Assembly (NCBI GenBank): GCA_002440965.1
Contig: DJWJ01000019.1
Coordinates: forward strand, 8,119 to 72,118
From: Candidatus Omnitrophica bacterium UBA6233
GTDB lineage: Bacteria > Omnitrophota > Gorgyraeia > Gygaellales > Profunditerraquicolaceae
Reading direction: 5' to 3'
DNA length: 64,000 nucleotides
The translations under genes and the position numbers were made by a program. Positions within the stretch are counted from its first letter, which is position 1, and each line of letters begins with the position of its first letter. Positions 36,690-64,000 of the stretch are shown in pieces. A model generated the notes under the pieces. That model was not told the origin of the DNA, searched no databases, and saw nothing but the letters and a program-made list of their open reading frames with translations.

Positions 36690-36696
36690 GGCTTTT

Positions 36697-38130: not shown

Positions 38131-38133
38131 CTG

Positions 38134-38493: not shown

Positions 38494-38515
38494 TGGTTCA
38501 TGAGGAGTATACTGC

Positions 38516-38788: not shown

Positions 38789-39014
38789 GCTTTACTTTTC
38801 TCCATCTGGTGCCTTTGCCTTTCAGGTATTGTCTTTCGCCCTCGGCAACAATCTTTTGCTCTGCCGAAGTAAGAGAGCCCTCTATCTGCTCAACAATCAA
38901 TTCCCGGACAAATGAGGACATTGACATATACCTCTTTTTGCAGATCTTAACTGTTTCGTTATAAAGCGAGGATGGCATTCTTATCAAAAGCTCTTTATTC
39001 ATAGTTACAGACAT
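38781..39014 (-). CDS. Ribbon-helix-helix (CopG-like) antitoxin
   Basis: Start at Met32 of track ORF (MSVTMNKELLIRMPSSLYNETVKI...), ATG 39012-39014 preceded by GGAGGTGA RBS. Confidence 0.5.
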   Translation of the reverse strand: MSVTMNKELLIRMPSSLYNETVKICKKRYMSMSSFVRELIVEQIEGSLTSAEQKIVAEGERQYLKGKGTRWRKVKRG

Positions 39015-39033
39015 TTTTATCACCTCCGAAGAA

Positions 39034-39062
39034 AGTATATCATAGTGATATACTTTTGTCAA
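39034..39062 (-). promoter_or_regulatory. Consensus sigma70 promoter with GTATATCACTATGATATAC palindromic operator for RelE/RHH operon
   Basis: Minus strand TTGACA-17 nt-TATACT; perfect 8/8 palindrome arms spanning spacer and -10. Confidence 0.6.
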
Positions 39063-39154
39063 GCGGCATCCGTTACCCTCTCCATAGTCCGTATACAAGG
39101 TGCCCAACGGCCAGACGAAGAGCCCAAGCTGCGCGGCAATCCGTTAGCTTTTAA

Positions 39155-39200
39155 TGGTTCCTCTAATCCCCTCTTCCAGCGTAAACGGCGGCTTCCAGCC
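39155..39200. repeat. Copy D (degenerate) of recurring motif (TAATCCCCTCTTCCAGCGTAAACGGCGGCTTCCAGCCAAG)
   Basis: Shares TAATCCCCTCTT-CAG and AGCCAAG blocks with copy C. Confidence 0.5.
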
Positions 39201-39286
39201 AAGCAAATTCCTGATTTTTTTGCTATCAACGACAGAATTCCTGTCCCACGAGAATCCACATGTTATGATGTACCTCTCTCCTAATG

Positions 39287-46769: not shown

Positions 46770-47837
46770 CTAACGTCTGATTTTCAGGCTAATATATTTT
46801 ACCATTATTGATGTAACATAACGCTTATAATAATAAGTACTGTTCTCTAAATCTACGAGGTAAATTTCTGCATTGGTATAATAAAAACGAAAAATCGTAA
46901 AATACGCATATAATCCGAGATTAAGAAAAACTCCGGGCAATTGCGCTATGAGCCGTGTAAAAAAACGATCTATAGTGGAATCCAACCGTTTCATAAGAAA
47001 TTCTTTATATTCTCTCAACGTATATGCGCCTCTTGCCCGATAAATCAGCAATGTCTTAAAGCGACGCCAGGGTTCACGCGGACAAACCCGATGCCTGGCA
47101 GATTCCGAAAAGTCAGAAAATGACCATATTAAATTTGGCCAAATAAGTAGAGAGACCTCAAAACATTTATTCGTCCACAAAGAATTCCCATATCTAATCG
47201 AGATCATCGGATTTGCGAGAACTACAATCTTTCCAGCAATAGGGCTCTGAAAAATAACAGCAACGTGAACAAAGAGAGTCCCAAAATATGTTTTTTTCTC
47301 TCTCGCATTCCATAGCGATCGCTTGAATACAATACAACCAATGAACGAAAGATAGCTAGCAACATCAATAAATAACTGCTCTGAATCTTCTCTCTGATAT
47401 ATTCGGTTATCTACAAAATTAAGGTAGCGTTTTTTTAGCACCTTAGAAAGATTGACATTCTTTATTTCAGCATTTACAAGAATCAACTCATAGTTGTGCT
47501 GAAACTCATCTAAAACAGCCTTAATCGCACCTGGCTTTAAAATATCATCATCAGAAAACAACCAACAATACTTACCTTCAGCTAATTCAACAGCACGACA
47601 GCAATCCTGATCAAACCCTCCCTTAGCAGCAAGGCGAATATAGCGAATAAGCGGAAATTTTTGTTGATAATTCTTTACAATTTCTCCCGTATTGTCAGTT
47701 GAGGCTCCATCCACAATAATAATTTCAACTTCATTTGTCGCTTGTGAAACAATACTATCTAATGCTTCCCCAATCAACATTGCACGATTAAATGTGGCGA
47801 TACAAATTGATAAAACAATATTATTACTCATATTCAC
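46770..47837 (-). CDS. Family 2 glycosyltransferase
   Basis: 355 aa; LSICIATFNR...IIIVDGASTDNT. Confidence 0.6.
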   Translation of the reverse strand: MNMSNNIVLSICIATFNRAMLIGEALDSIVSQATNEVEIIIVDGASTDNTGEIVKNYQQKFPLIRYIRLAAKGGFDQDCCRAVELAEGKYCWLFSDDDILKPGAIKAVLDEFQHNYELILVNAEIKNVNLSKVLKKRYLNFVDNRIYQREDSEQLFIDVASYLSFIGCIVFKRSLWNAREKKTYFGTLFVHVAVIFQSPIAGKIVVLANPMISIRYGNSLWTNKCFEVSLLIWPNLIWSFSDFSESARHRVCPREPWRRFKTLLIYRARGAYTLREYKEFLMKRLDSTIDRFFTRLIAQLPGVFLNLGLYAYFTIFRFYYTNAEIYLVDLENSTYYYKRYVTSIMVKYISLKIRR

Positions 47838-49420
47838 TTCCCTGATCCTGCCATCTTTAATGCCAACGCTTCGACGCGGGCAGCAGCCATACCGTCTGCT
47901 TGATATGCATAACGCTTTAAAAAATCTTGGCGCGCAGATTCAAGTTTTACCTTTGTATTAGCCTCTGAACCATCCGCAATCATTCTAAATATATTTATGA
48001 TCTCCTGACATGATTCAGGAATAAGGACTGCGCCAGAATCTTTAAAAATATCGCTGAAAACCCAACCTGGAAAAACAGGACAAATGGTAAGTTTACCAGC
48101 GATAAGCGCATCTATGGTCGCTGTGGAACCAAAAGAAATAAAAGCGTCGCAAATCCGGATTAACTCCCTAATGTCTGACTTCTGAGAAACAAAAATAATA
48201 TTTTTATATTTTTTAGCCAAAGCACGCGTTTGGCGCACATTTTCAACCGGATGAGGTTTAACTACAAGACTTATTCCCGGCGTCTTATCAGCAGCCTGAA
48301 ATATAGCACACTTCATAGAACGTAAGAATTCCGGATTTGAGTATTTATCATGGGTCTTCAAATGGTAAGTAGAAGCCAACACGACCATCGCGTTTTCTTC
48401 CGGTACACGTAACATGGCGCGCTTCGATTTAACCTCTGAATTAGACAGATTAACAAGAAAATCATGACGTGGCGAACCTGTTATAATAATTCTCTCTGAG
48501 GAAACTTTCTGTTTCAGCATTGCCTCTTTCGAAACATCCCCCCAGACAGCAACGCGATCTGCAGTAAGAAAACGCCACTCGATCCCTTCATCCCCAGCTA
48601 AACCAAACTGGATATCCATACAAGGAATACCCATAAGCCGGCAAAGTAGCGTATAAATTCGCGTCCGAGGATCAGCTGTATCAGAATTAATTACCATTGC
48701 AGGACGATGCTTCTCTAAAATATGCCGAGCTACAACAGCATGCGGGATAATAAGAGGCAAATAAACCCGAAAAAACCGATTAAATAAATTTTTAAAATTC
48801 CTTACCAGATGACGGTCATTATCAGGCACTGCGTTTAATAATGCATTTGATAATCGTAAATTTATTTCAATTTGGTAAATTGATTTCTGTAGTTTAGAAA
48901 CCTGCCCCCCTATTTGTTCACCCCAATGCTGCCACAATGTTTGATATCTACAATTTTCAAAGGAAGATAGTTTCTTATCAAAACGATTCTGATCGCCCAA
49001 TACTACTATGTTACAATCTTTATGCATAACTAATCGGCTAACTACCGGCCGGAGAACATCTCTGTACATCTGATTAGTAAAACCAAGACAAAGAAGAGTT
49101 TTCCCGATTGGCCATGATGAACATCCATGCGTATTGTGGCGGTGACGAATTAAATTACGCAAGCCGTGTTTAAATCGAATCAGACCTGGCCTTATTCGCT
49201 GCATCATGTCTTTAGATGAAATATCGGATGCTAATACGGTTGGTATATGACTGTGTGCAAATTCAGCAGAGAACACATCCCAGAATTGTATGCCCTCCAC
49301 AGTAAGTGTTGTCGACAATGTTTTCCCGTTAGAAAGATTAAATTTACCGAACTCTTCAACTAAGGATGCGGAATAATTCAGCGTATCTATAACATTTAAC
49401 ATAGATTTATCTTTAGTCAT
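47834..49420 (-). CDS. GT-B-fold transferase with HP motif (KpsS/KpsC ulosonic-acid transferase or TagF glycerophosphotransferase-like)
   Basis: 528 aa; C-terminal LVVKPHPVE...FISFGSTATIDALIAGK pattern shared by Capsule_synth and Glyphos_transf families. Confidence 0.35.
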   Translation of the reverse strand: MTKDKSMLNVIDTLNYSASLVEEFGKFNLSNGKTLSTTLTVEGIQFWDVFSAEFAHSHIPTVLASDISSKDMMQRIRPGLIRFKHGLRNLIRHRHNTHGCSSWPIGKTLLCLGFTNQMYRDVLRPVVSRLVMHKDCNIVVLGDQNRFDKKLSSFENCRYQTLWQHWGEQIGGQVSKLQKSIYQIEINLRLSNALLNAVPDNDRHLVRNFKNLFNRFFRVYLPLIIPHAVVARHILEKHRPAMVINSDTADPRTRIYTLLCRLMGIPCMDIQFGLAGDEGIEWRFLTADRVAVWGDVSKEAMLKQKVSSERIIITGSPRHDFLVNLSNSEVKSKRAMLRVPEENAMVVLASTYHLKTHDKYSNPEFLRSMKCAIFQAADKTPGISLVVKPHPVENVRQTRALAKKYKNIIFVSQKSDIRELIRICDAFISFGSTATIDALIAGKLTICPVFPGWVFSDIFKDSGAVLIPESCQEIINIFRMIADGSEANTKVKLESARQDFLKRYAYQADGMAAARVEALALKMAGSGK

Positions 49421-51972: not shown

Positions 51973-52779
51973 TTATACTTTGCTCCATAATTCCGGAACT
52001 AAATCTCTCGGACTACTCCTGGCTTTTTCAGTAAACCATTTTTGTGGTGCAAATACCTTCTTGTTCGGATTTTTATTCAGCCATGCTCCCCACCAGCTAA
52101 AAGTACTATTAGCAATAATGTTATGCTTACACAAACTCATTAAACGCATGTCTTCATAATTTTTATCTGCCCCGTTGTGATCAACAAATGTAACCGGATA
52201 CGGAAGTTTAAAATTATCACGTACCCAAAGGATATCATCGGCAAATATAAAAAAATGCGGTTTCTTAAGATCGCGAACAATGCGTTTAGCGGAATCCAAG
52301 TAATAATCAAAACTGCAACTTTCTAATATCTGCTCCTTATAAGTATTAGGCAGGTAATCTGACCTACGTATATGCACACTTACCGAATCACAACACATAA
52401 TTTGCCCAACGACTTCTTTATCTCTACCCGATAATGGCAACTTTACAGATAGTTCGCACCTAATAATATCAGCAATACTTTTAAAATATTTCTCGCTTTG
52501 CCAATAACCGAGCAAGTAAACTTTATCAGGAAGTTGCAATATTTCGGGATCAAAATGAAAGTGTTTTTCCCGTACATGTTTTACTTCTGCTAATTCATCC
52601 GGTGTAGCAAAATTTTCTACAATATTTAAATGGTTTAAGGAATACGCGTGTATCTTATAAAACTCGAATTCCGATATATCAATTTTTAATTCCGCATGAC
52701 AAATTTCGGACAGATGCCGCCCAACAGCATATTGAAAACACTGATTCCCAAGTCCACCGATTAATCTAGTAATAATCAT
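51973..52779 (-). CDS. Glycosyltransferase family 11 (alpha-1,2-fucosyltransferase-like)
   Basis: 268 aa; ITRLIGGLGNQCFQYAVG = GT11 signature motif I. Confidence 0.8.
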   Translation of the reverse strand: MIITRLIGGLGNQCFQYAVGRHLSEICHAELKIDISEFEFYKIHAYSLNHLNIVENFATPDELAEVKHVREKHFHFDPEILQLPDKVYLLGYWQSEKYFKSIADIIRCELSVKLPLSGRDKEVVGQIMCCDSVSVHIRRSDYLPNTYKEQILESCSFDYYLDSAKRIVRDLKKPHFFIFADDILWVRDNFKLPYPVTFVDHNGADKNYEDMRLMSLCKHNIIANSTFSWWGAWLNKNPNKKVFAPQKWFTEKARSSPRDLVPELWSKV

Positions 52780-53957
52780 GCCTCATGCCTCTTAAGACAA
52801 TCGGTTAAAGTTTTAATATCTTTCTTATTTAATTCCGGATAGTTCCCGCAATAAAACCCCCGATCATGGACAAAATCAACATCAGGGAGTTCATATGAAT
52901 AAAGAATATATTTTTTGTAAAAAGGTTGTCTCTGAATGTTGCCGGCAATTATGGGACGGGTCTCAATGCCGGCGTTAGAGAAAAGTTTCATATATCTGCA
53001 TTTGAGCTGCGGAGTTTTGCATAAAACCGGAAATGCGAAATTAGAAAGCACCGAAATATGCGACCTATCAAGCGTTTGCAGGTCAGGATTATCTTTTACT
53101 ATAGACTCCAGCAATAAGTAATTTCTTTGTCTTATAGCTATATTCTCCTTTAAGAATTTTAATTGATATCGTCCCAGAAAGCCTGTTATCTCAGTCGGGC
53201 GAATATTATAACCCAGATCATAAAAAGTGTATTTCGCTTCGAATTCGGAATTAATATTGTATTTCTTCCGCCACCTATGTTGTTTAGGCGCACTTAAATT
53301 ACGGTCCCACCCATTTGCACGGACAATTCTAAGCATTTCATCTATCTCTCCGTCGTTTGTGCAAATCATCCCACCCTCGACAGTAGACATATGGTGTGCA
53401 ACAAAAAATGAAAACGAAGACATTATTCCGAAATTTCCAGTTTTACCAGAAGGTAATTCTGTTCCTAATGCTTCACAATTATCTTCAATTAGAATAATCT
53501 GGGCTTCATTACAAACTTTACGAATAACATCAAGATCTCCCGCAAAACCAAGCGCGTTAGTAACAAAAAATGCCCGGAGATCTGTCTGGTTCAGCCGTTT
53601 TTTAAGATTGGATGCCATAACGTTCAGAGTCCTTTGATCGCAATCAATTGGAACTGGTTGCATACCAAGCTGCAGAATAGGCATAACATTTGTAGACCAG
53701 GTTAACGCTGAAAAACCAATTTTATCCCCATCTTTCAATCTGCCAAGGTTTTTAAGCGCTTGAAGCATAGCAAGATTAGCGCTCCCTCCGCTATTCACAA
53801 GAGTCGCATTCTTTACACCTTGAAATACGGCAAATTCTTTTTCAAAGGCTACAACCTGTTCCCCCATACTTAACTTCTTGGCTTTTAAAATAAACTTTAC
53901 TAAGGCATCTTTCGTATCAAGTTCATTTAAAAAAGCACTTTTCATTAAGGGAATCAT
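52776..53957 (-). CDS. DegT-fold sugar 3-dehydratase of the ColD type (GDP-4-keto-6-deoxymannose-3-dehydratase-like), not a transaminase
   Basis: 393 aa; PLP-lysine position occupied by His (SFSFFVAHHMSTVEGG); no Cys cluster. Confidence 0.55.
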   Translation of the reverse strand: MIPLMKSAFLNELDTKDALVKFILKAKKLSMGEQVVAFEKEFAVFQGVKNATLVNSGGSANLAMLQALKNLGRLKDGDKIGFSALTWSTNVMPILQLGMQPVPIDCDQRTLNVMASNLKKRLNQTDLRAFFVTNALGFAGDLDVIRKVCNEAQIILIEDNCEALGTELPSGKTGNFGIMSSFSFFVAHHMSTVEGGMICTNDGEIDEMLRIVRANGWDRNLSAPKQHRWRKKYNINSEFEAKYTFYDLGYNIRPTEITGFLGRYQLKFLKENIAIRQRNYLLLESIVKDNPDLQTLDRSHISVLSNFAFPVLCKTPQLKCRYMKLFSNAGIETRPIIAGNIQRQPFYKKYILYSYELPDVDFVHDRGFYCGNYPELNKKDIKTLTDCLKRHEA

Positions 53958-54943: not shown

Positions 54944-56212
54944 TTAATCATCCACACCGCCGCCCCATATTGTGTGCCTCAATCTCCATTGGCCATTAAT
55001 TTTTGACCAAAGATGAGGTGAACGGAAATGATCACAAAGTTCCATAAATCTCTCTGGTTTAATTTCTAAATAATTCATAATTTCTTTAAAGTATTTGTCC
55101 GGAAACTCACCATCGAATTTTTTCACTAGGGCAACACCTTCTTCCCGTGTCAAATGGTTATTCCTTATCTCCTGGGAAGCATCATAAGTAGCCCGTCCGA
55201 TCCCAAATTTAATAAATGTTGTATAATAATGGAGATCATCAATCTTATCATCAATACTATTGTATTTGCTATAAGTCCCCTGAGTCCTAAACGGTCTGGC
55301 CTTAAATCCCGTATTTTCAACCGCATAATAATACACTTCTTCCGGTGTCCACTTGAGGTAATATCCGAGATAATGCACCTCAATAGCTGCTTTTTCCAGC
55401 TCAACCGGGCTGCAAGGTAAAAAAGGCATCAGATCATTAAGTGAAACGTTATATTTATCTGTTAACTCCCTGATAGATATTCCTCCTAAGTAAATTTCAT
55501 CTAAATCTTTAAACATATAATATGATTTGTCGCGCAATGACTTGGTATTATCGGCAAGAGGATTGCCGTATTCAGCCTCATTTTCTCCGTAAAAAACAAG
55601 AGGTATCCCGAATTTCGCAGCAAGCTTGGGCCCTAAATTCTTTTGGCCCAAAATAAAAGTTTGAAAAGGATGGAACAAGTTTTCTATACTCAGCCTTGTT
55701 AAAAGCTTCATAATCTGTCCATTATGATTAAAGCTTAGATTGTCAAAACCTCCGATATCCAGCCAATTCTTAAAATTCTTGTAACCGTAATCCGTATATA
55801 AAATCGGGGACCAGGTCACTGTCAATGGATGCATTCCATACTTATACTTCAAAATATGCGCCTGATAAGCGCTGTCTTTACCGCCGCTGCCGGGAACTAT
55901 GCAATCATATTCACCGTCGTTGCGCCGGTATTTTTCCAGAAGCTTCAATAATTCATCTTCGCGTTTTTTCCAATCAATGCGCGTTTTTTCCTCGGCATGC
56001 AAACAGGCATCGCAAACACCCTCTTCATTAATATTTAAGGTGACCTTTTTACTTTGGATCGTATGCTTAAACTCGATAGCTGAGGCCGGCCTTTGATTAG
56101 ACATAACGCATCTTTTACAGAAAATCACTTTTTCCGGTAACCCGTATTTTACTTCAATATTTTCGCTCATTTTTTCATCAACTCCGAGTGCGCAGATACA
56201 ATCTGAGCCCAA
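54944..56212 (-). CDS. N-acetyl sugar amidotransferase (PP-loop ATPase; WbuX/WbpG/PseA family)
   Basis: 422 aa; SGGKDS PP-loop (CIVPGSGGKDSAYQ), N-terminal Cys-rich segment. Confidence 0.8.
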   Translation of the reverse strand: MGSDCICALGVDEKMSENIEVKYGLPEKVIFCKRCVMSNQRPASAIEFKHTIQSKKVTLNINEEGVCDACLHAEEKTRIDWKKREDELLKLLEKYRRNDGEYDCIVPGSGGKDSAYQAHILKYKYGMHPLTVTWSPILYTDYGYKNFKNWLDIGGFDNLSFNHNGQIMKLLTRLSIENLFHPFQTFILGQKNLGPKLAAKFGIPLVFYGENEAEYGNPLADNTKSLRDKSYYMFKDLDEIYLGGISIRELTDKYNVSLNDLMPFLPCSPVELEKAAIEVHYLGYYLKWTPEEVYYYAVENTGFKARPFRTQGTYSKYNSIDDKIDDLHYYTTFIKFGIGRATYDASQEIRNNHLTREEGVALVKKFDGEFPDKYFKEIMNYLEIKPERFMELCDHFRSPHLWSKINGQWRLRHTIWGGGVDD

Positions 56213-56901
56213 TTCTTAAAAACTCTCAATCCTTTTAACCCGCTCTTTTCAGGATGAAACTGTGTAGCACAGATGGAATCTTTTAAAAGAGCAGAGCAGT
56301 ATTCCGTATCCTCATAGTTTGTTTTCGTAAGAACAAAACTGGTATCATCTAAAACTGCATAATATGAATGCACAAAATACATATACTCGCCATCAGGTAT
56401 GTTTTGTAAAATAGGGGCACCCTGAAAGGCGGGATGAATTTTATTAAAAAACACCCGGTTCCATCCAACCTGCGGAACCTTGATCTTCCGCCCCGCTTTA
56501 TCTATACTATTGAATTTGATAACCCTGCCTTTGATAACATCCAGGCCTTTGTGCCCGCCGAATTCTTCACTTTCAGTCAAAAGAAGCTGCATCCCCAAAC
56601 AAATTCCCAAAAAAGGCTTACTTAATCCGATACGATCCTTTATTGCTCCGACTAAATCCATTTTTTTTAAATTATTCATTGCATCCCCAAAAGCTCCTAC
56701 GCCGGGAAGAATAACGCCCCCTGCCTGTAAAATAATATCTTTATCCGCAGTAATAACGCTGCGCAAACCTACACTGGCACACGCACGCTGGACATTAAAC
56801 AAATTACCCATGCCATAATCGATAATCGCTACCTGATGTTTATTTAGGTCCGGCATAGGTATCCTGTTCATTATACAGACGGCACTGAACCCCTTCATCA
56901 A
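56167..56901 (-). CDS. HisH-like glutamine amidotransferase subunit (WbuY-type)
   Basis: 244 aa; class I GATase triad region LGICLGMQLL...H.. Confidence 0.8.
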   Translation of the reverse strand: MMKGFSAVCIMNRIPMPDLNKHQVAIIDYGMGNLFNVQRACASVGLRSVITADKDIILQAGGVILPGVGAFGDAMNNLKKMDLVGAIKDRIGLSKPFLGICLGMQLLLTESEEFGGHKGLDVIKGRVIKFNSIDKAGRKIKVPQVGWNRVFFNKIHPAFQGAPILQNIPDGEYMYFVHSYYAVLDDTSFVLTKTNYEDTEYCSALLKDSICATQFHPEKSGLKGLRVFKNWAQIVSAHSELMKK

Positions 56902-57730
56902 TTAAATATTTTTTTATCAAAGGAAGCGGCTCGGATTTAAAATTTGTAAAAACCCGGCCGCTCTTTAAAAATTCAACATTGCCTTCGCTAAATAGTCCTG
57001 AATCAAATTCTGCTTCTTTAATAACATGATAATGCAGCATAGAGGCAATGGCCACGGCATCCGCTCCGCCCTGAATAATGGCATCTTTAACATCTTCCAG
57101 CTTCCCGGGACCACCGGAAGCAATCACGGGAATAGCAACAGAATCCGATACGGTTTTTATCAGCTCCAGGTCATAGCCTGACCCGGTTCCATCGCGGTCA
57201 ACAGAGGTTAATAATATCTCGCCGGCGCCCAGCTCTTCTGCCCGCTTTGCCCAGGCAAGAACCTCCACTCCCGTATATTCTCTGCCGTTATCAATATATG
57301 CCAGGTACTTTCCATCTGCTTGCCTGATCACCTCAATAGTAATGACAATCGTAGAAGATCCGAAGATCCGTGAAGCCTCATAAATAAAATTGGGATTCTT
57401 AATCGCGGCAGTATTCAAAGAAACTTTATCCGCTCCGGCCCTTAAAACACTCCGGATGTCCTCGATAGTCCTGAGCCCTCCCCCAACCGTCAAAGGAATA
57501 AAAATTTCTTGCGCTGTTTTATTAATTATATTATGCAGGCTATTGCGGTTATACAAGCTGGCAACCACATCGATGTAAATAAGCTCATCAGCGCCATGCT
57601 CATAATAAAACCGGGCAAAATCTTCCGGTTTACCCAAAACACGCAAGCCCTCTAAATGAATACCTTTAACAAGATTCGGACCTTTGATATCAAGCCTAGG
57701 GATAATGCGAATGTTCTTAGCCATTTTCAA
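56840..57730 (-). CDS. HisF-like cyclase/ammonia-channel subunit (WbuZ-type)
   Basis: 296 aa; (beta/alpha)8 HisF motifs [10 protein letters not shown]...DGTGSGYDL. Confidence 0.8.
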
Positions 57731-57744
57731 ATTAAATATTTTAA

Positions 57745-58602
57745 TTATTTAACTTTAAAAATTGAATTAACGGAATTTAATCTTATAATATGCGAATAAA
57801 AACTTGTTTTATTCTTAGCATCTGCGGTAATCGCTGTAGGCTCTTTAATAATAAAATAGGCTTCGTAGCTATTATTATAAGCTACAAATGCGATGTTAAA
57901 CCGTTCAATCATAGCTTTATTCTCCGATGAGGAAAAATCAGGTAAAAGTATAGGCCCGGTATCTACCTGATATAGTTCATTTTCTTTACTCACATTCAAT
58001 GTTTTTATAGGAAATTCCAAAATAGCGCGGTATCGCCCCGATTGATCGCTAATTTCTATGCGGCCATTAATAATAACGCTGCCCTCCGTAATCATCGCAA
58101 TTTTTATTTTATCTGATAATTGCTCGATTCTAGCCATTTTTATGTAGAAATCAATATCTCCAAACGCTTCTTTCCAAAAACCAGGCTGAACATTATCAAA
58201 CAGCGTATTAGCAAAGTTGCGTATGATCAGAAATTCCTTATCTGCAATAATCATGGAAAAATCGTAAGGCGGATCAAGGAATAGCCTGCCCTTAGAATAA
58301 GTGTCCTCCCCTTTACAGCTGGCTAATAAATAGTAATTTTTCGTTTGACCTGTAAGCGTATCATGGATTTCACACCGAGCCTCAACTTTAATCCTGGTAT
58401 TAGACTTACTGCTTCTTCCGCATAAAGTGATAAATGATTTGCTAAAATCACAACCTCTAGTTTCTTGTTTTTTAGCTACTTGCGCACCTATCCTCCGTAA
58501 CTGCGCGTCCTTTGAAATAATTCTATATCCAAAAACTAAGATAATAACAACAAAAAGCAGTCCTACGGTCTTAAAAACAATCTGAAAATATTTAATTACC
58601 AT
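57745..58602 (-). CDS. Hypothetical membrane-anchored protein (no recognisable family)
   Basis: Start taken at Met32 (MVIKYFQIVFKTVGLLFVVIILVF: signal-anchor), ~285 aa. Confidence 0.3.
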   Translation of the reverse strand: MVIKYFQIVFKTVGLLFVVIILVFGYRIISKDAQLRRIGAQVAKKQETRGCDFSKSFITLCGRSSKSNTRIKVEARCEIHDTLTGQTKNYYLLASCKGEDTYSKGRLFLDPPYDFSMIIADKEFLIIRNFANTLFDNVQPGFWKEAFGDIDFYIKMARIEQLSDKIKIAMITEGSVIINGRIEISDQSGRYRAILEFPIKTLNVSKENELYQVDTGPILLPDFSSSENKAMIERFNIAFVAYNNSYEAYFIIKEPTAITADAKNKTSFYSHIIRLNSVNSIFKVK

Positions 58603-58660
58603 TTCTTCCCCTTTCAATATTTTAAAGATAATAGAACAAAATTTAATCCCCCTATACGCA

Positions 58661-59377
58661 TCAGAAAGCACATCCTTTATTCTTATTTCCTTCAACCATC
58701 ATGATTTCGGCTATTTTAAAATCCATATAATCATCAATATCAATTGAACGGATTTTGGGCATAACATATACTTTACTATTTTTTAGGAATATTCCCTTTT
58801 TTTCGTCCAAAACATCTTTCCACCAAACGTATATCGAAGCATTCATGTCATACACTTTAGGCGCTTGCTGCCTTGAGCTGAAACGCCCCTCTTTAACCAG
58901 TTTGACCTTGCCCCTGACCACCTCCACCATATTAAAATACGGATTCCTGTTCGCTTCAGTAACCGAAAAAACATTATCCGCCTTCTGATTAACGAGCAAC
59001 TTAATGCAATTATTAATATCTTGAACTGATCTCAACGGAGCTGTCGCATGCAACAATACCAGGATATCAAACGGATAACCTTCCCCTTGGAGCCACCCCA
59101 TAGCGTGCAATAAAACATCTATGGTGCTGCTTTTATCTTGGGCTAAAAACTTTGGCCTGATAAAAGGAACCTCAGCTCCATACTTCTTCGATATATCCGC
59201 GATCTTTTTATCATCCGTAGAAACAATGATCCTGTCAATTAACCCGGAGTCCTTTGCCTGTTTGATACTGCGGGCGATCAACGGCTTGCCCAGAAACATT
59301 TTAATATTTTTGCCAGGCAACCCTTTTGACCCACCTCTGACCGGAATAATACATACTACTCTTTTATTTTTATACAT
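58661..59377 (-). CDS. CMP-nonulosonic acid synthetase (acylneuraminate cytidylyltransferase family)
   Basis: CIIPVRGGSKGLPGKN signature; start at Met5 (ATG 59375-59377) with GAGG RBS. Confidence 0.8.
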   Translation of the reverse strand: MYKNKRVVCIIPVRGGSKGLPGKNIKMFLGKPLIARSIKQAKDSGLIDRIIVSTDDKKIADISKKYGAEVPFIRPKFLAQDKSSTIDVLLHAMGWLQGEGYPFDILVLLHATAPLRSVQDINNCIKLLVNQKADNVFSVTEANRNPYFNMVEVVRGKVKLVKEGRFSSRQQAPKVYDMNASIYVWWKDVLDEKKGIFLKNSKVYVMPKIRSIDIDDYMDFKIAEIMMVEGNKNKGCAF

Positions 59378-59378
59378 T

Positions 59379-60317
59379 TTAAGCCTCAATAAGCTTGAGC
59401 ACCTTTACTCCGTCTTCGAATGTAACTTCCGGCTGACGGTTAAACTTTACTGATTTTATAAAACTCCGGATTTCATCCGTGTAGCTCTTATCCAAATTAA
59501 AAAGTTTTTTATCAGAAACGACTGTTTTTCTTCCCAGAGTATCAATTATTATCCTTTTGTTGATTAAATCGCAGGTAAGTGCCCCTTTTTCACCTTCTAT
59601 GCAGATAACTCTTTTCTTATTTTTCTGCAAGTAATCCAGATGCACGCTGCAGATAAAATTATCATAAACATATATTCCTTCAAAAACATCATCCGCATTG
59701 ATCTTTAGGTTACTGACCTTAGCCTTAACCACTTTGCTTGAGTAAGGATCGCCAAAGAGAAAGCGCATATAATCTATTTCGTGGGATAAATCTAAGGCAA
59801 CGCCTCCGCCGCGTTTTTTTGAAGCGCTGTAAGAAACGCGGTAATCGCGCCCTTTCCTCCAGAACGGTAGATACTGCCCAGCTTCAATCTTGGCAAAGTA
59901 GATGCTGCCGATCAAATTATGAGAAAGCTTGGTTTTAATAAACTTAAGCGCTCCCAAAAACCTTAAGTTATATCCAACGCCAACTTTTATTTTGTTTAGC
60001 CGGACAATTCTTTTTAATTTCTCCAGATCCCCGCTCAAATTATGCGCAATCGGTTTTTCAATGAACAGATGAATTCCTTTTTTTGCTAAAATTAACGCCG
60101 TATTCAGGTGTTGATAAGTTTCATTGGCGATCACTGCTAAATCCGCCTGAACAGTATGCAAAGACTTTACCATTGAAACTTTACGTTTATCTTTTAAACC
60201 GTCCAGGCAATGCTTAACTTTAGAATAGACAAATATCTGGCTAACTTCAGCCAGCTTATTTAAATTTCCCAAATGCCTTTTTCCTATGGATCCGCACCCA
60301 ACCAGCAATACTTTCAT
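59379..60317 (-). CDS. Gfo/Idh/MocA-family oxidoreductase
   Basis: MKVLLVGCGSIGKRHLGNL Rossmann; start ATG overlaps SDR stop (TAATG). Confidence 0.7.
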   Translation of the reverse strand: MKVLLVGCGSIGKRHLGNLNKLAEVSQIFVYSKVKHCLDGLKDKRKVSMVKSLHTVQADLAVIANETYQHLNTALILAKKGIHLFIEKPIAHNLSGDLEKLKRIVRLNKIKVGVGYNLRFLGALKFIKTKLSHNLIGSIYFAKIEAGQYLPFWRKGRDYRVSYSASKKRGGGVALDLSHEIDYMRFLFGDPYSSKVVKAKVSNLKINADDVFEGIYVYDNFICSVHLDYLQKNKKRVICIEGEKGALTCDLINKRIIIDTLGRKTVVSDKKLFNLDKSYTDEIRSFIKSVKFNRQPEVTFEDGVKVLKLIEA

Positions 60318-61087
60318 TACCAGACACTCCATCCGCCATCAACTAAAAGATTCTGGCCGGTAATATAAGCAGCGGCTTCTGAAGAAAGGTAGATTACTGC
60401 CCCGACCATATCAAGCGGTTTAGCCATCCGCTTAAGCGGAGTCTTATCGGCGTATCTCTTCACAAATAAAGGATCTTGCCGGTTAAAAACCCCTCCAGGA
60501 GATATAACATTAGCCCGGATGTTGTATTTTGCATAATAGGTAGCCAAATATTTAGTAAAATTAATGATACCGCCCTTGATTGCAGAGTAAGCTGCCGGCA
60601 TGGTTATTTTAGTGCCTCGATATATACTGAAATCCGGGGCCACTACCCCGTAAATAGAAGCAAAATTTATAATGACCCCTCCTGATTTTTTCTTCATCAA
60701 CTCTGCGGCCACCTTAGAGCAGATAAAATACCCGCCCAAGTGGTTATTCACATTCTCTTTCCAGGAATCAAAGGTAACTTTTTCCAATCCTAAACCCCAA
60801 TCATCGGTCCGGGGATAGGCACAATTGATCAAAATATCAATTCCTTTAGCTTCTTCGCAAACTGCATTTAAAGCCCGGTAAATCGAATCTTCTGAAGCTA
60901 TATCTAAATAAATAAACTTAATACCCCTAGTTTTAATCTTTCCTGCGGCTTGCTTATCAATATCGGCAATATACACCTTTGCCCCAAAATCGCTCAAGCC
61001 TTTTACGATTTCACTGCCGATCAAACCCGCTCCGCCTACCACAACCGCTACTTTATTTTTTAAATCAAAAATAGAATTATATCTCAT
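60317..61087 (-). CDS. Short-chain dehydrogenase/reductase (SDR)
   Basis: 256 aa; VAVVVGGAGLIGSEIV, YSAIKGG catalytic Y-x3-K. Confidence 0.75.
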   Translation of the reverse strand: MRYNSIFDLKNKVAVVVGGAGLIGSEIVKGLSDFGAKVYIADIDKQAAGKIKTRGIKFIYLDIASEDSIYRALNAVCEEAKGIDILINCAYPRTDDWGLGLEKVTFDSWKENVNNHLGGYFICSKVAAELMKKKSGGVIINFASIYGVVAPDFSIYRGTKITMPAAYSAIKGGIINFTKYLATYYAKYNIRANVISPGGVFNRQDPLFVKRYADKTPLKRMAKPLDMVGAVIYLSSEAAAYITGQNLLVDGGWSVW

Positions 61088-62253
61088 TTCTCTCCTATCG
61101 CATAAAAAGTTTTTTTAATATCTTTTAGGCTTGAAATATTCTTCTTGATTAGTCGATAAATTTTCCCCACTGTCCCACCTTTACCATATGGATTAGACAC
61201 GCCTTTGCAGAATTTCGAGAATTCAGGAGACAGCGCTTTTTGAATAGCTTTTGAAATTTGCCCTGATTCCGGTTTAACATCAATTACGCTCATCGCCCTT
61301 ATTCTGCCTTTTTGCCGATCACCGATATTAACCGTGGGAATCTTCAGGGACGGCGCTTCTATTATCCCGCTACTGGAATTCCCGATTACTAAGTTCACAT
61401 TTTTTAAACACGACAGATACCTTAACTGGCCTAAAGATGAAAAGGCTGCCGCTTTATTCGGTGATCGCCTGACGTATGCATCTATCAATTTAATAATGAT
61501 ACGCCCGCCCGGATCGGCGTTCGGCTTAGTAAAAATAATTTTAAGCCCCGGGCAAGCATCAAGGGCTTTAAGTAGTTCTGTAACCTGGTATTTAGCCGTA
61601 TTATCCTCTAAGGTAACCGGATGAAAAGTTACCAATGCCGACTTTTCGCCCAAACTAAAATCCAGCGATCGTTCTAATTCCGGTCTCGTCAATAATTTCA
61701 TTTCCAGGATATTATCTATTCCTATCGCACCGACGTTAAATACCCTACACGGAGACTCTCCCAATTGCACCACTCTTTGACGGTATTCTTCCGTAGAGGT
61801 AAAATGCAATAAACTCATCTTCGTAATAGAGTGCCTGATTGCTTCATCAATCAGCCCGTAAGTCGCTTCGCCTCCGCCGATATGAACTATGGGTATCCTG
61901 GCAATAAGGGCGGCAATAGCTGCCGCTAAGGCTTCAAATCTATCACCGAAGATAATGATTAAATCCGGCCTCAATCTGCTTAACGCTTGGCTATAACCAC
62001 CGATCCCCGTGCCGATCGATTTTGATATACCTGCTATTGAATCCGAGTTCGTAATTATTTTTACTTTTTTCGATATTTTAAACCCATCCTTTTCAATCTC
62101 TTTATAAGTCAACCCGAATTCCGCAGATAAATGCATCCCAGATACTAATATCTGAAAGTTCCAATCCCTGTCTTTATTTATCCTATCCATCAAGGGCTTC
62201 AGAAGGCCATACTCAGCCCGTGTTCCTGTAAATACACATATTGTCTTTTTCAT
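61084..62253 (-). CDS. neuC: Hydrolysing NDP-GlcNAc-family 2-epimerase (NeuC/LegG type)
   Basis: 389 aa; KKTICVFTGTRAEYGLLKPL N-terminus typical of NeuC. Confidence 0.8.
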   Translation of the reverse strand: MKKTICVFTGTRAEYGLLKPLMDRINKDRDWNFQILVSGMHLSAEFGLTYKEIEKDGFKISKKVKIITNSDSIAGISKSIGTGIGGYSQALSRLRPDLIIIFGDRFEALAAAIAALIARIPIVHIGGGEATYGLIDEAIRHSITKMSLLHFTSTEEYRQRVVQLGESPCRVFNVGAIGIDNILEMKLLTRPELERSLDFSLGEKSALVTFHPVTLEDNTAKYQVTELLKALDACPGLKIIFTKPNADPGGRIIIKLIDAYVRRSPNKAAAFSSLGQLRYLSCLKNVNLVIGNSSSGIIEAPSLKIPTVNIGDRQKGRIRAMSVIDVKPESGQISKAIQKALSPEFSKFCKGVSNPYGKGGTVGKIYRLIKKNISSLKDIKKTFYAIGEK

Positions 62254-62918
62254 ACAATCCCCTTAAGGAGCATAAAACTTTCCGCGTAAAAACAATTAGC
62301 CATGGCTCCTCTAAAAATAGCAAGAGCTTCAATATTCTTTTTACTCCTAGGAAACGGATGCTTTTGTATTTCATTTTTGTAGACAGCCATTATTTCAAGC
62401 TTGGTTTTAAAGTAACGGCTGATATCAACAAAATAATTCGGGATAAAGGTATTTTCCTCTAAAGTTAAGGCAAATTCTGTTTCGCTTATAGTTTCCATCA
62501 TTAATACAGTTTTTATGAATGGATTTCTGAATGTTTTAAGGCAGCTATAAGCCGCATTAAAAAAATACCTGTGGTCGGAATGGACATCTCCCTGGAATGG
62601 CAGGTAAACAGTCTCCGGTTTAACTTTCTCAATTACGGCAGATATTTTTGTTATCAACTCTGCAACTGGTATTATATCTATACTCTTAGCCGGTAGGCAC
62701 AGCCTGAAAGTATCAGTAAAACCGTAAGCTGCCGCCACTCTCTCTATTTCCTTTTGGCGGCGCTTCACCGCCGGTGTGCCAGGCCCATATTCTTTTGCAG
62801 TATCGGTAGCAATCAACCAAAACAAATCATCCCCCGCCGCCTTATGCTTCAGCAGTGTTCCGCCGCATCCGAGAGTCTCATCATCAGGATGCACTGCCAT
62901 TACCAGTACTTTTTTCAT
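62250..62918 (-). CDS. PIG-L/LmbE-family N-deacetylase
   Basis: 222 aa; AVHPDDETLGCGGTL zinc-binding signature. Confidence 0.7.
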   Translation of the reverse strand: MKKVLVMAVHPDDETLGCGGTLLKHKAAGDDLFWLIATDTAKEYGPGTPAVKRRQKEIERVAAAYGFTDTFRLCLPAKSIDIIPVAELITKISAVIEKVKPETVYLPFQGDVHSDHRYFFNAAYSCLKTFRNPFIKTVLMMETISETEFALTLEENTFIPNYFVDISRYFKTKLEIMAVYKNEIQKHPFPRSKKNIEALAIFRGAMANCFYAESFMLLKGIV

Positions 62919-63799
62919 AGTAAATATTCCCCTGTTTGTGGTAAAACCTTAAATTCATGTACCGTTAAAAGAATAGCTCCCGCATAGCATTTTACTAAAA
63001 CCTGCCTGCCTGAAATTCCTAGCACTTTACCGCATTCGATATTCGCGATATTATATTTTTTTTCAACCACCTGCCATATTTTAACTTCTTCGCCGCGCCA
63101 TATTAGATGCGCTCCAGGATAAGGCTTAGTCAATGCCCTCACCAGATTATAGATCGCCCTGCTTGTCATTCTAAAATCTATTCGCCCGTCTTCTTTAATT
63201 CTTTTCCGCCAACAGCTTGACTTTGAATGATCCTGAGGTATCCGGCTGTAATTATTCTTCTGTAATTTAGGTAAAAAACCCTCCATTTGCCGCAAGGCAA
63301 TATTCGTTACTTTCCGGTATAGACTCCCTGCATCATCGCTATATTCAATTAAAATATTTCTCTGGGACAATATATCTCCACTGTCACAACTTTCATCCAT
63401 AAAGAAAAAAGTAGAAGCGGTTTTGCCCAATCCGAGCGCTAACGCCCAAATCAAAGGATGCCTTCCCCTGTTTATAGGAAGTTTGGCTGGATGATATCCA
63501 ACTATACCTAAAGACGGAATTTTTAATATCGCTTTTTTTATTATTTGCGAGAATCCAAAACAAAAAATAATATCCGGGCGTTTATTTCTAATCCATTCCT
63601 GATTTTCTTTAATGTTAATATCTGTAACGTATTTATACGGTATTTTATTCTTAACGCATATACTGGACAAGTCGGCAAAATCCGCATTCAGTCCCGAGCT
63701 TTTCCGGGTAAGCACTCCAACAACATCAGCTTTTAGTTCTATCAATTTTTGTAACGCCGCTTTACTGAATTCTACCGTTCCGATGTAAACAATTTTCAT
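62915..63799 (-). CDS. Formyltransferase (Fmt/ArnA-N-terminal-domain family), probable sugar N-formyltransferase
   Basis: 294 aa; N10-formyl-THF binding region ILNIHPSLLP-like (VGYHPAKLPINRGRHPLIWA) and C-terminal Fmt-like domain. Confidence 0.6.
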   Translation of the reverse strand: MKIVYIGTVEFSKAALQKLIELKADVVGVLTRKSSGLNADFADLSSICVKNKIPYKYVTDINIKENQEWIRNKRPDIIFCFGFSQIIKKAILKIPSLGIVGYHPAKLPINRGRHPLIWALALGLGKTASTFFFMDESCDSGDILSQRNILIEYSDDAGSLYRKVTNIALRQMEGFLPKLQKNNYSRIPQDHSKSSCWRKRIKEDGRIDFRMTSRAIYNLVRALTKPYPGAHLIWRGEEVKIWQVVEKKYNIANIECGKVLGISGRQVLVKCYAGAILLTVHEFKVLPQTGEYLL

Positions 63800-64000
63800 A
63801 TTGAAATCTTTTCATCCTTTAAAAAATCACGTTTTGCCGTTTTTCCTATAACTTTATCCCAAAGCATGGGACTTAATCCTATACCCGGTCTCTTAACCGT
63901 TAGATTAGCTCCTGAAAAAATTTCCTGCTTTTTTATATCCCGCAAAGCCACAATGCTTTTTCTAACAATTGAGATATTTTTAGCTTCCGAATCCGATAAT
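63796..64000 (-). CDS. neuB: NeuB-family nonulosonic acid synthase, 3'-terminal 68 codons only (gene continues beyond window end); stop TGA overlaps downstream ATG (ATGA)
   Basis: Reverse translation gives ...ISIVRKSIVALRDIKKQEIFSGANLTVKRPGIGLSPMLWDKVIGKTAKRDFLKDEKISI*, a SAF (antifreeze-like) C-terminal domain as in NeuB/LegI/PseI. Confidence 0.55.
   Translation of the reverse strand, partial: LSDSEAKNISIVRKSIVALRDIKKQEIFSGANLTVKRPGIGLSPMLWDKVIGKTAKRDFLKDEKISI

Follow-up and report, generated by a model that had tools for sequence, protein, structure and literature searches.

The locus described here raises the question of which sugar is built by an operon that combines nonulosonic acid genes with an amidotransferase trio, a deacetylase and a formyltransferase-like protein, and of which nitrogen of that sugar would carry each acyl modification. 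Positions 54944-64000 of the window (the whole 64,000-nucleotide stretch of DNA that was analysed) cover the distal two-thirds of an operon that opens a Wzx/Wzy-type O-antigen locus in a Ca. Omnitrophota bacterium; the type of cluster is recognisable and a few of its parts are uncharacterised. Taken as a whole, the best explanation, to which we assign a probability of roughly 0.75, is a legionaminic acid (Leg)-type O-antigen operon that uses a GDP-sugar route and adds acetimidoyl and formyl tailoring of N-acyl groups.

Extent and gene content of the operon

All genes named in the initial annotation were found at their places, densely packed on the minus strand, on which all operon coordinates below are given. 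Neighbouring genes overlap by 1 to 17 nt or are separated by no more than about 60 nt; no prominent terminator-like site was seen between the genes, and the counts of promoter-like and terminator-like sites were not above those of shuffled sequences. Judged by gene spacing, the stretch from wzz to wbuX is compatible with a single operon, whose order would be wzz-gmd-legB-legC-ptmE-legH-neuB beyond the window edge (apart from the 3' end of neuB) and fmt-pigL-neuC-ptmA-ptmF-legF-unk-wbuZ-hisH-wbuX inside it. The same contig extends 7 kb past position 64000, with 0 mismatches over 10 kb in comparison to the window; the window edge cuts the biosynthetic module, and the true start lies about 4.7 kb (LegB) to 6.8 kb (Wzz) past 64000. 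The continuation also encodes Gmd and Wzz, while downstream in the O-antigen locus are found Wzx, Wzy_C proteins, GT2, GT4, GT9 and GT11 glycosyltransferases, and a candidate nonulosonate transferase of 528 aa (47834..49420, minus strand; PF04464). The assignment of the last is tentative: with the BFO_1060-family glycosyltransferase model it reached 85 of the 200 bits required, and with TIGR04396 76 of 125 bits, both weak matches that fall short of the cut-off.

The 3' end of neuB/legI, the nonulosonic acid synthase gene (67 codons plus stop; 63796..64000), continues past the window, and its translated product matches exactly the C-terminal residues of a 334-aa NeuB encoded at 6253-7257 of the same contig (L001). 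This full-length protein passes TIGR03569 (491.6 bits, cut-off 399.65) and fails the PseI model (297 bits, cut-off 340). The NeuC/LegG-type hydrolysing NDP-sugar 2-epimerase (389 aa; 61084..62253) scored 484.7 bits with TIGR03568 (cut-off 235.9) in comparison to only 83 bits with the non-hydrolysing WecB model. It is followed by a PtmA-like short-chain dehydrogenase (SDR; 256 aa; 60317..61087; adh_short_C2, 131 bits), a PtmF-like Gfo/Idh/MocA oxidoreductase (312 to 317 aa, 312 aa in the contig gene call; 59379..60332; PF01408 and PF02894) and a LegF/NeuA-like CMP-nonulosonic acid synthetase (238 to 242 aa; 58661..59389; PF02348), which scored 187 bits with the PseF model (cut-off 205.7) and whose best solved relatives are CMP-Neu5Ac synthetases (4e-33). 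Past position 64000, where the initial annotation had suggested looking for LegB/LegC-type and acetyltransferase genes, LegB (TIGR04180, 487 bits, cut-off 475) and LegC (TIGR04181, 482 bits, cut-off 420) were both found above their NCBIfam cut-offs, together with a LegH-type acetyltransferase, which is a NeuD/PglD-type N-acetyltransferase, and a PtmE-like protein of PtmE size with CBS and nucleotidyltransferase domains.

The resemblance to the Campylobacter ptm/leg gene set proposed earlier stands as far as the presence of the genes is concerned, but the likeness of the SDR to PtmA is at family level only, since the PtmA model NF050062 gives it 162 bits with a cut-off of 350; its size is that of PtmA in the Plesiomonas Leg cluster (PMC4481668). 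The LegF, PtmA, PtmE and WbuZ candidates all fall under their equivalog cut-offs. Together, LegB, LegC, the PtmE-like and LegH-type proteins and the full-length NeuB on the contig point to a GDP-linked legionaminic acid pathway rather than to plain Neu5Ac or pseudaminic acid, so that of the legionaminic/neuraminic-type product first anticipated, the legionaminic type is favoured. As a prediction from sequence this assignment is supported at the level of the type, Leg and its 4-epi and 8-epi isomers looking alike to these tools.

Between the synthetase and the amidotransferase genes lies the uncharacterised membrane-anchored protein that had been noted in mid-cluster (57745..58695; 285 aa if translation starts at the ATG at 58602, and as many as 316 aa if it starts at the TTG at 58695). 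Its N-terminal transmembrane helix is strongly hydrophobic (Kyte-Doolittle peak 2.56) and is followed by an all-beta domain of about 240 aa (AF2 model pLDDT 83.6). No Pfam or NCBIfam match was obtained, and a Foldseek search of the model against the PDB gave nothing at E<=0.001. A profile search gathered 1002 cluster representatives in a family without annotation, three of which are fused to BNR_2 sialidase-like propellers. The protein is taken to be an accessory confined to this lineage, and its all-beta domain may putatively recognise nonulosonic acids.

Proposed route and the deacetylase-formyltransferase pair

The product of the operon would be a CMP-activated 5,7-diamino-3,5,7,9-tetradeoxynonulosonic acid of the legionaminic type, a proposal which applies established pathway knowledge of the GDP-sugar route to genes passing family cut-offs. 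The PtmE-like guanylyltransferase would supply a GDP-hexosamine, LegB would carry out 4,6-dehydration, LegC would install the C4 amine, and LegH would acetylate this amine (the future N7), after which the NeuC-type enzyme would take off GDP and epimerise C2, NeuB would condense the sugar with PEP, and the LegF-like enzyme would attach CMP. Two tailoring modules would then alter the N-acyl groups. WbuX, using ATP and ammonia from the HisH/WbuZ pair, would convert an acetamido to an acetamidino group, most likely the 5-N-acetyl group given its orthology to the Legionella enzyme. PIG-L would strip one N-acetyl group, most likely that on the future N5 because PIG-L family members deacetylate GlcNAc-type sugars at the 2-acetamido group, and the Fmt-like enzyme would place a new acyl group, most likely formyl, on the exposed amine; both may act on the GDP-sugar, the free sugar or the CMP-sugar. 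If N5 is the target of both modules, the WbuX trio and the PIG-L/Fmt-like pair would compete, and one of them may instead act on N7. The expected output would be a 7-acetamido legionaminic acid with 5-acetamidino and/or 5-formamido substitution, or one that is tailored twice, and the finished sugar would then be transferred into the O-unit.

The Fmt/ArnA-like protein of the formyltransferase fold (294 aa; 62915..63799; PF00551, Formyl_trans_N, and PF02911, Formyl_trans_C), for which Met-tRNA formyltransferase and ArnA are the closest proteins of solved structure, is proposed to be an N-formyltransferase acting on the deacetylated amine. Next to it lies a PIG-L/LmbE-type zinc de-N-acetylase (222 aa; 62250..62918; PF02585, 75 bits, cut-off 28), the nearest solved relatives of which are diacetylchitobiose and GlcNAc-malate deacetylases, and whose zinc/catalytic motifs HPDDE and HxDH are intact and conserved in 78 to 80 of 80 homologues. 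The two genes were directly adjacent in every one of 80 homologous loci, whose genomes span about 13 phyla, and these loci contain NeuC in 67 cases, NeuB in 65, PtmE in 63 and LegC in 57. They are a fixed pair, biochemically uncharacterised, which occurs nearly always within Leg-type clusters.

It is unlikely, though deserving of serious weight, that the formyl acceptor of the Fmt-like protein is the 4-amino intermediate (the future N7), the protein competing with LegH or standing in for it, while PIG-L only strips the 5-N-acetyl group, leaving N5 free or otherwise acylated as in Leg5N7Fo, or giving Leg5Am7Fo if WbuX precedes PIG-L. ArnA and other characterised sugar formyltransferases act on NDP-4-amino sugars, the 5-N-acetyl group would stay open to a Legionella-type WbuX, and the CMP-nonulosonates of Ca. 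Kuenenia have one free amine and one formyl group with no legH listed in the cluster (10.64898/2026.04.20.719630). However, such a scheme would leave unexplained both the invariant pairing with the deacetylase and the retention of LegH in 41 of the 51 complete loci (those having both LegC and NeuB), which suggests that the Fmt-like enzyme adds to LegH and does not replace it, and in the one structurally defined N-formyl legionaminic acid the formyl group is at N5 (PMC6137143).

The gene order bears on a different timing, which we judge decidedly unlikely, whereby the pair acts at pathway entry: PIG-L would provide the PtmE-like enzyme with a glucosamine phosphate or nucleotide, and the Fmt-like protein would N-acylate GDP-GlcN in place of GlmU. 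Most of the loci have the order fmt-pigL-ptmE, PtmE beginning about 1.5 kb after the Fmt-like gene, and a passage of PMC4481668 citing Schoenhofen 2009 indicates that the Campylobacter GDP route requires a separate N-acylation of GDP-GlcN. In the operon of the window, however, PtmE is upstream of the pair and not next to it; housekeeping GlmM already supplies GlcN-1-P, which makes a deacetylase superfluous at this step, and the free-amine species in the Kuenenia preprint is at the CMP-sugar level (10.64898/2026.04.20.719630). The end product (5-N-formyl) would be the same as with tailoring of N5 after the core pathway, with a difference in timing only.

Somewhat less probable again is that the Fmt-like protein is no formyltransferase and transfers another group or is non-catalytic, the product then lacking N-formyl. 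The protein scored below all curated formyltransferase cut-offs, those of the fmt and ArnA models included, and the Asn of the catalytic Asn-His-Asp triad, found in every characterised formyltransferase of the fold, is replaced by Gly101 in all 80 homologues, so that formyl transfer is not assured; Asn110, Arg113 and His114 are further invariant residues of the family. On the other side, the catalytic residues His103 and Asp139 and both Fmt domains are conserved, the 50% to 77% identity of the family across phyla argues for a conserved enzymatic role, and the anammox bacterium Ca. Brocadia (L092) has the same Fmt-like and PIG-L families in a module like that of the window, and N-formyl nonulosonates are reported from a related anammox bacterium (10.64898/2026.04.20.719630). 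Exchange of an N-acetyl for an N-formyl group by the deacetylase and the formyltransferase, as the initial annotation had suggested, gains independent support from the fixed Leg-linked pair, from Kuenenia and from the sugar of Halorubrum, and it remains our preferred reading.

The amidotransferase trio and its substrate

The WbuX-type N-acetyl sugar amidotransferase (54944..56212; TIGR03573, 359 bits, cut-off 203) has 422 aa from a TTG and probably starts at the ATG at 56170, giving 408 aa; it carries the SGGKDS PP-loop and a CxxC...CxxC motif. The HisH/WbuY-type glutaminase subunit (229 to 244 aa; 56167..56901; TIGR01855, 208 bits, cut-off 105) has GICLGMQ (Cys) and FHPEKS (His and Glu), and the WbuZ/HisF-like cyclase-type subunit (294 to 296 aa; 56840..57730; PF00977, 218 bits) falls slightly under both the WbuZ model TIGR03572 (284.8 bits, cut-off 299.7) and the HisF model (279 bits, cut-off 294.6). 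WbuX is 59% identical (237/399; 542 bits) to the L. pneumophila NASAT (PDB 8WEX), and homologues 49% to 67% identical to the window protein were found inside Leg clusters in five other genomes. The O-chain of L. pneumophila serogroup 1 is a homopolymer of 5-acetamidino-7-acetamido-8-O-acetyl-legionaminic acid, and legionaminic acid is the only acetamidino sugar reported in L. pneumophila LPS (PMC7867332). The trio therefore most likely acts on the nonulosonic acid, supporting the N-acetimidoyl group that had been placed there.

Ordinary Neu5Ac made via NeuC, NeuB and NeuA, with the trio modifying an unrelated O-unit hexosamine such as FucNAc as in E. coli O145, a scenario which the initial annotation had set against its own reading, is very improbable: although the operon does encode NeuC, NeuB and a NeuA-like synthetase that match Neu models, and a PglF/WbpM-type UDP-GlcNAc dehydratase encoded in the locus (30813-32639) could provide another N-acetylated amino sugar, the LegB and LegC equivalogs and the LegH-type and PtmE-like genes directly upstream do not serve Neu5Ac synthesis, WbuX and its close homologues are tied to Leg as above, and FnlABC-type genes were not found in the vicinity of the trio.

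Comparison with known systems

The ptm-leg flagellin glycosylation genes of Campylobacter jejuni and C. coli (LegB, C, H, G, I and F; PtmE, A and F; the amidotransferase PtmG) represent the same GDP-linked CMP-Leg enzyme set as the window, and the equivalent Leg cluster of Plesiomonas shigelloides is similar in gene set and protein sizes (PMC4481668), a WbuX-family amidotransferase making the acetamidino form. Unlike in Campylobacter, the operon of the window heads a Wzz/Wzx/Wzy O-antigen locus and not a flagellar island, its amidotransferase has its own HisH and HisF-like subunits, and it adds the PIG-L/Fmt-like pair and the uncharacterised membrane protein, while neither Maf-type transferases nor a PtmH methyltransferase turned up in the locus.

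In the LPS locus of L. pneumophila serogroup 1 legionaminic acid is an O-antigen component, as is likewise proposed for the window. Legionella proceeds via UDP-GlcNAc and assembles its homopolymer by an ABC-transporter (Wzm/Wzt) pathway, whereas the locus of the window has LegB, LegC, PtmE, Wzx and Wzy together with the deacetylase/formyltransferase-like pair. WbuX and LpNASAT have the PP-loop, the tetracysteine motif and the 55-69 segment in common over 399 residues, the segment being termed unique by the authors of the LpNASAT work (PMC10607449).

For the pair, the cluster of Ca. Kuenenia stuttgartiensis (SugarBase 2026 preprint), likened by its reported gene content, has a deacetylase and a formyltransferase among legB, legC, neuB, legG and legF homologues and was linked by mass spectrometry to its free-amine, N-formyl CMP-nonulosonates (10.64898/2026.04.20.719630); it differs in gene order, and legH and the amidotransferase trio are not reported for it. 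In the archaeon Halorubrum sp. PV6, likened by description, the clustered Leg genes (HrrPV6_1046-1053) are co-transcribed with a predicted formyltransferase gene and the product is 5-N-formyl-legionaminic acid (PMC6137143), but the sugar terminates an N-glycan on the S-layer protein, a deacetylase is not mentioned and an amidotransferase is absent.

WbuX/WbuY/WbuZ of E. coli O145 and WbpG with HisH2/HisF2 of P. aeruginosa have the same architecture of PP-loop enzyme, glutaminase and HisF-like subunit, and the TIGR03573 and TIGR03572 families in common with the window. Those trios modify hexosamines or hexosaminuronic acids, whereas for the trio in the window a nonulosonic acid substrate is suggested both by the genomic context and by the nearest characterised relative.

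Gene content of the cluster and its continuation past the window edge

All of the genes named in the initial annotation were found on the minus strand at 54944-64000, and throughout the 64-kb window every ORF of at least 150 aa with gene-like packing lies on that strand. Eleven genes fall within the interval, namely the 3' end of neuB (63796-64000) followed by genes for a formyltransferase-fold (Fmt-like) protein (62915-63799), a PIG-L deacetylase (62250-62918), a NeuC-type hydrolysing 2-epimerase (61084-62253), an SDR (60317-61087), a Gfo/Idh/MocA oxidoreductase (59379-60332), a CMP-sugar cytidylyltransferase (58661-59389), a protein without family match (57745-58602, up to 58695), a HisF/WbuZ-like protein (56840-57730), HisH (56167-56901) and WbuX (54944-56212). 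At four junctions in a row the genes overlap by 4 nt (ATGA), and the remaining junctions overlap by 1-17 nt or leave gaps of at most about 60 nt; judged from this layout, a single operon is plausible. Promoter-like and terminator-like sites were not more numerous in a consensus scan than in shuffled sequence, and the scan is uninformative on transcription.

The continuation of the contig was retrieved by exact-protein look-up (ENA ERZ27315056 k141_410360, 79 kb; JGI 3300001592; Logan runs). The continuing contig used here, L001, shows 0 mismatches to the last 10 kb of the window, with window position 64000 corresponding to L001 position 7053, and carries upstream, in the same orientation, genes for Wzz, Gmd, LegB, LegC, a CBS plus nucleotidyltransferase protein, an acetyltransferase and NeuB. 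The dehydratase, aminotransferase and acetyltransferase of LegB/LegC type which the initial annotation had proposed to look for past 64000 are thus all present. LegB, the NAD-dependent NDP-GlcNAc 4,6-dehydratase (L001 2376-3362, about 4.7 kb past the window end), scored 487 bits with TIGR04180 (cut-off 475), the LegC aminotransferase (L001 3368-4540) scored 481.8 bits with TIGR04181 (cut-off 420), and the GDP-mannose 4,6-dehydratase Gmd (L001 1303-2373) scored 512 bits (cut-off 415). The LegH-type 4-N-acetyltransferase (L001 5613-6260), composed of PglD_N and hexapeptide repeats, scored 226 bits with TIGR03570 (cut-off 161), a model of the NeuD/PglB/VioB subfamily, and its assignment is at the subfamily level only. 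The full-length NeuB of 334 aa (TIGR03569, 491.6 bits, cut-off 400) and the 2-epimerase (TIGR03568, 484.7 bits, cut-off 236) both passed models which do not tell Leg and Neu enzymes apart.

The remaining candidates have the expected domains and sizes and passed no specific model: the LegF-like synthetase (PF02348, 238-242 aa), the PtmE-like protein (CBS and NTP_transferase, 352 aa), the PtmA-like SDR (256 aa; PtmA model 162 bits, cut-off 350) and the PtmF-like Gfo protein (312-317 aa). In gene content and in protein sizes the cluster agrees with the experimentally supported legionaminic acid cluster of Plesiomonas shigelloides, in which PtmA has 254, LegF 229, PtmF 326, PtmE 352, LegH 217, LegI 359 and LegG 382 aa (PMC4481668). 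The LegB and LegC scores above their cut-offs, the failure of the pseudaminic acid models and this Plesiomonas-like set together argue for a predicted pathway of the GDP-linked legionaminic type, in which legionaminic acid and its 4-epi and 8-epi isomers are not separable here.

Two other nonulosonic acids were considered. A plain Neu5Ac pathway would agree with the NeuB and NeuC scores equally well, and to our knowledge LegB, LegC and LegH have no role in Neu5Ac synthesis. A pseudaminic pathway was rejected, with PseB at 84 bits on the LegB gene (cut-off 408), PseC at 239 on the LegC gene (423.5), PseI at 297 on NeuB (340) and PseF at 187 on the synthetase (205.7), and with the NeuC-type 2-epimerase in the place of PseG.

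The two proposed N-acyl tailoring modules

Nonulosonic acids cap bacterial surfaces, where their N-acyl groups determine charge, hydrophobicity, antigenicity and recognition by phages or lectins. The first of the two modules which may modify these groups is the amidotransferase trio, whose WbuX, HisH and HisF-like genes are contiguous. WbuX scored 359 bits with TIGR03573 (cut-off 203) and contains an SGGKDS PP-loop of the SGGxDS ATP-pyrophosphatase type and a CxxC...CxxC tetracysteine motif; HisH scored 208 bits with TIGR01855 (cut-off 105), and the HisF-like protein reached 284.8 bits with the WbuZ model, just short of the cut-off of 299.7. In the PDB search with WbuX a single relative stood out strongly, at 542 bits: 8WEX, the N-acetyl sugar amidotransferase of Legionella pneumophila. 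The two proteins share 59% identity (237/399), and the PP-loop, the tetracysteine motif and the segment 55-69, which is absent from other family members according to the structure paper (PMC10607449), were all aligned. The O-chain of L. pneumophila is a homopolymer of 5-acetamidino-7-acetamido-8-O-acetyl-legionaminic acid and no sugars other than Rha, Man, QuiNAc and GlcNAc occur in its LPS core (PMC7867332), so the substrate of the Legionella enzyme is presumably the 5-N-acetyl group of legionaminic acid.

The same trio stands beside Leg genes in six comparison loci (L013, L014, L016, L025, L039 and L082), and trio homologues with 49-67% identity were found within Leg clusters of other Omnitrophota and of Planctomycetales, Leptospira and Desulfobacterales MAGs. 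The initial annotation had given as the contrary case a trio acting on a hexosamine unrelated to the nonulosonic acid; the occurrence of WbuX homologues inside other Leg clusters argues against this. The combination with the second module also recurs, amidotransferase genes being present with it in 15 of the 80 loci (the best 80 of 146) described next.

This second module is the pair of Fmt-like protein and PIG-L deacetylase. The Fmt-like protein matched PF00551 (73.8 bits) and PF02911 (68.2 bits), its solved relatives are Fmt (8.7e-31) and ArnA (9e-27), and it has many close relatives of 293-294 aa with 58-77% identity. In a survey with one genome per species, 146 relatives were obtained and the best 80 kept. 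Among these best 80 loci a PIG-L gene adjoins the Fmt-like gene in 80/80, nearly always directly downstream, and other pathway genes recur around the pair: NeuC (67 loci), NeuB (65), the PtmE-like gene (63), LegC (57), the CMP-synthetase (54) and LegB (46). The hosts in the same set belong to about 13 phyla and include Campylobacter concisus, Sulfurimonas, Pelagibacteraceae (SAR11), Prochlorococcus, Capnocytophaga, Flavobacteriia, Leptospira, Thermoanaerobacterium, Ca. Brocadia and Omnitrophota. LegH is kept in 41/51 of those loci which have both LegC and NeuB, suggesting that the Fmt-like enzyme adds to the 4-N-acetyltransferase and does not substitute for it.

The PIG-L protein scored 75 bits with PF02585 (cut-off 28) and contains VHPDDE and HSDH; the metal-binding and catalytic motifs HPDD(E) and HxDH are conserved in 78-80 of 80 homologues. 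All of its relatives of solved structure take off the 2-N-acetyl group of GlcNAc-type sugars, and the N2 of such a sugar is the future N5 of the nonulosonic acid, so that the simplest reading of the pair, by analogy, would be an acetyl-to-formyl exchange at N5. In Ca. Kuenenia, CMP-nonulosonic acids with one free and one formylated amine were described, and a Leg-like cluster with a deacetylase and a formyltransferase was pointed to (10.64898/2026.04.20.719630); the N5 exchange is compatible with this preprint.

With the ArnA triad N102, H104 and D140 (Asn-His-Asp) as reference, H103 and D139 of the Fmt-like protein align with the catalytic His and Asp in the alignment to Fmt and ArnA. At the position of the catalytic Asn the window protein has Gly101, as do 80/80 homologues in about 13 phyla (L014-L093), and N110, R113 and H114 are invariant in 80/80 as well. 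With Gly in place of the catalytic Asn the protein falls outside the canonical formyltransferases, though it may work like one. We know of no enzymatic characterisation of the deacetylase/Fmt-like pair. The N-acyl swap which had been read from the deacetylase and formyltransferase genes gains support from a pair that is fixed in 80/80 loci and mostly accompanied by Leg genes. Such a fixed cross-phylum Leg module suggests that legionaminic acids with N-formyl or free amine groups are far commoner than the two reported cases.

Should both the Legionella-type WbuX and the PIG-L/Fmt-like pair act on N5, they would compete. The product might then be a mixture of sugars with 5-acetamidino and with 5-formamido groups, one of the modules might target N7 and a doubly tailored sugar result, or the 4-amino intermediate might be formylated by the Fmt-like enzyme.

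The 285-aa membrane-anchored protein

The protein at 57745-58602 has a strongly hydrophobic N-terminal helix, and in its AF2 model (pLDDT 83.6) an all-beta domain comes after a single long helix. Neither Pfam nor NCBIfam matched the protein or any of its 26 aligned homologues at E<=5, and Foldseek of the model against PDB gave no match at E<=0.001; weak hints of a LolA-like or DUF1329 fold had TM-scores of about 0.2 and were not relied on. A word-indexed search returned 43 relatives and a profile search 1002 cluster representatives, most of which are about 240 aa long, stand alone and lack the N-terminal anchor. One protein clustering with it carries an NCBI annotation to a Candidatus Omnitrophota MAG (MFA4934074.1).

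The gene adjoins HisF, HisH and WbuX genes in the window and in the comparison loci L094 (79% identical) and L013 (53% identical), and in L094 the HisF-like and HisH parts are fused into one protein of 519 aa (1384-2943) adjoining it. None of the 80 Fmt-family loci (the best 80 of 146) carries it, and no nonulosonic acid synthesis genes stand beside family members in 83 other family loci examined; the protein is therefore a lineage-specific accessory. A role as core pathway enzyme was rejected, the neighbourhoods of its homologues being mostly unrelated to nonulosonic acid synthesis.

In three cluster representatives (P0182, P0204 and P0225) the domain is fused to a BNR_2 propeller, with both possible orders represented; for P0204, the one fusion checked, the solved relatives are almost all sialidases. 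A separate BNR_2 gene is near the domain in three loci, directly downstream in L165. Recurrent neighbours are Gfo/Idh/MocA oxidoreductases (15 loci), ROK kinases (8 loci, immediately upstream on the same strand) and Kelch proteins passing the NANM model (6 loci). Because of the BNR_2 fusions in both orders and the ROK kinase and NanM-like Kelch neighbours, there are hints that the 240-aa domain may bind or process sialic-acid-like sugars, which would turn the protein into a member of an unannotated domain family with sialidase links. The loci with BNR_2, ROK or Kelch context are L130, L164, L165 and L146-L161, and in marine metagenome loci the 240-aa domain directly follows a ROK kinase near a NanM-like Kelch protein. 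In a TetR fusion (P0234) the domain is missing its first part; this fusion may be an artefact and was set aside.

We consider it rather unlikely that the PIG-L/Fmt-like pair is a dedicated N5 acyl exchange and the 285-aa family a domain for sialic-acid-like sugars, both being new biochemistry. If this were true, 5-N-formyl-legionaminic acid would be a widespread bacterial surface sugar in about 13 phyla and, together with the Legionella-type amidotransferase, a doubly tailored formyl/acetimidoyl legionaminic acid would result, of which we know no prior description.

The surrounding O-antigen locus and comparison with known systems

Downstream of wbuX the window encodes GT2, GT11, GT4 and GT9 glycosyltransferases, methyltransferases, a PF04464 protein and a Wzx flippase (49477-50982), and three Wzy_C proteins of the O-antigen polymerase/ligase family lie at 12924-14162, 29605-30816 and 42510-43733, all on the minus strand. 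With Wzx, Wzy_C and glycosyltransferases downstream, the region is the head of an O-antigen/LPS locus and not a flagellar island; PriA is encoded on the same contig just past the other end of the window. The PF04464 protein (47834-49420, 528 aa) weakly matches the BFO_1060 (Tannerella) glycosyltransferase family and TIGR04396, and is a tentative candidate for the nonulosonic acid transferase. Three Wzy_C proteins and several GT9 heptosyltransferases occur in this one-directional 64-kb locus, and the arrangement suggests a concatenation of the core with more than one system for O-unit assembly.

A second sugar module (19802-29633, minus strand) comprises a glucose-1-phosphate cytidylyltransferase (28818-29633, 420 bits), a CDP-glucose 4,6-dehydratase-like protein (27807-28808), a divergent NeuB-like protein without SAF domain (24088-25179), an acetolactate-synthase-like TPP enzyme (22286-24079), RfbH (19802-21115, 717 bits), a reductase, an MBL-fold hydrolase and a methyltransferase, and presumably resembles a branched 3,6-dideoxyhexose (yersiniose-type) pathway. 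Its NeuB-like gene was rejected as a sign of a second nonulosonic acid pathway, scoring only 112-117 bits and lying within the CDP-hexose module. Gmd on L001, an RfbH/ColD-like PLP enzyme (52776-53957), an epimerase/reductase (50979-51923), a GT11 fucosyltransferase-family protein (51973-52779) and ManC (6472-7875), the last four on the minus strand, look like a GDP-6-deoxy or 3,6-dideoxyhexose (fucose/colitose-type) branch of the same O-antigen. Mobile or defence-like genes break up the polysaccharide locus at about 33000-39300, as seen from the matching contigs L006 and L008; they comprise a TacA1 antitoxin and GNAT, a Bro-N protein, two AAA_14 ATPases (35462-37934) and a ParE-type toxin. 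The exact look-up gave no match for the protein at 44690-45736.

Overall, the results support a Leg-type O-antigen operon with a Legionella-type acetamidino system and a deacetylase/formyltransferase-like module, by which the initial proposal of a tailored legionaminic-type nonulosonic acid is upheld and sharpened to the GDP-linked route. The locus, from a candidate phylum that has been little studied, is a complete and compact genetic blueprint for legionaminic acid with N-acyl tailoring of two kinds, and the survey supplies concrete enzymes, among them one of formyltransferase fold whose active site is non-canonical. In comparison to known systems, the kind of system is already known, and what is new is the combination of both tailoring modules, the general occurrence of PIG-L and the Fmt-like protein as a fixed pair, the non-canonical active site of the latter, and an unannotated domain family linked to sialidases.
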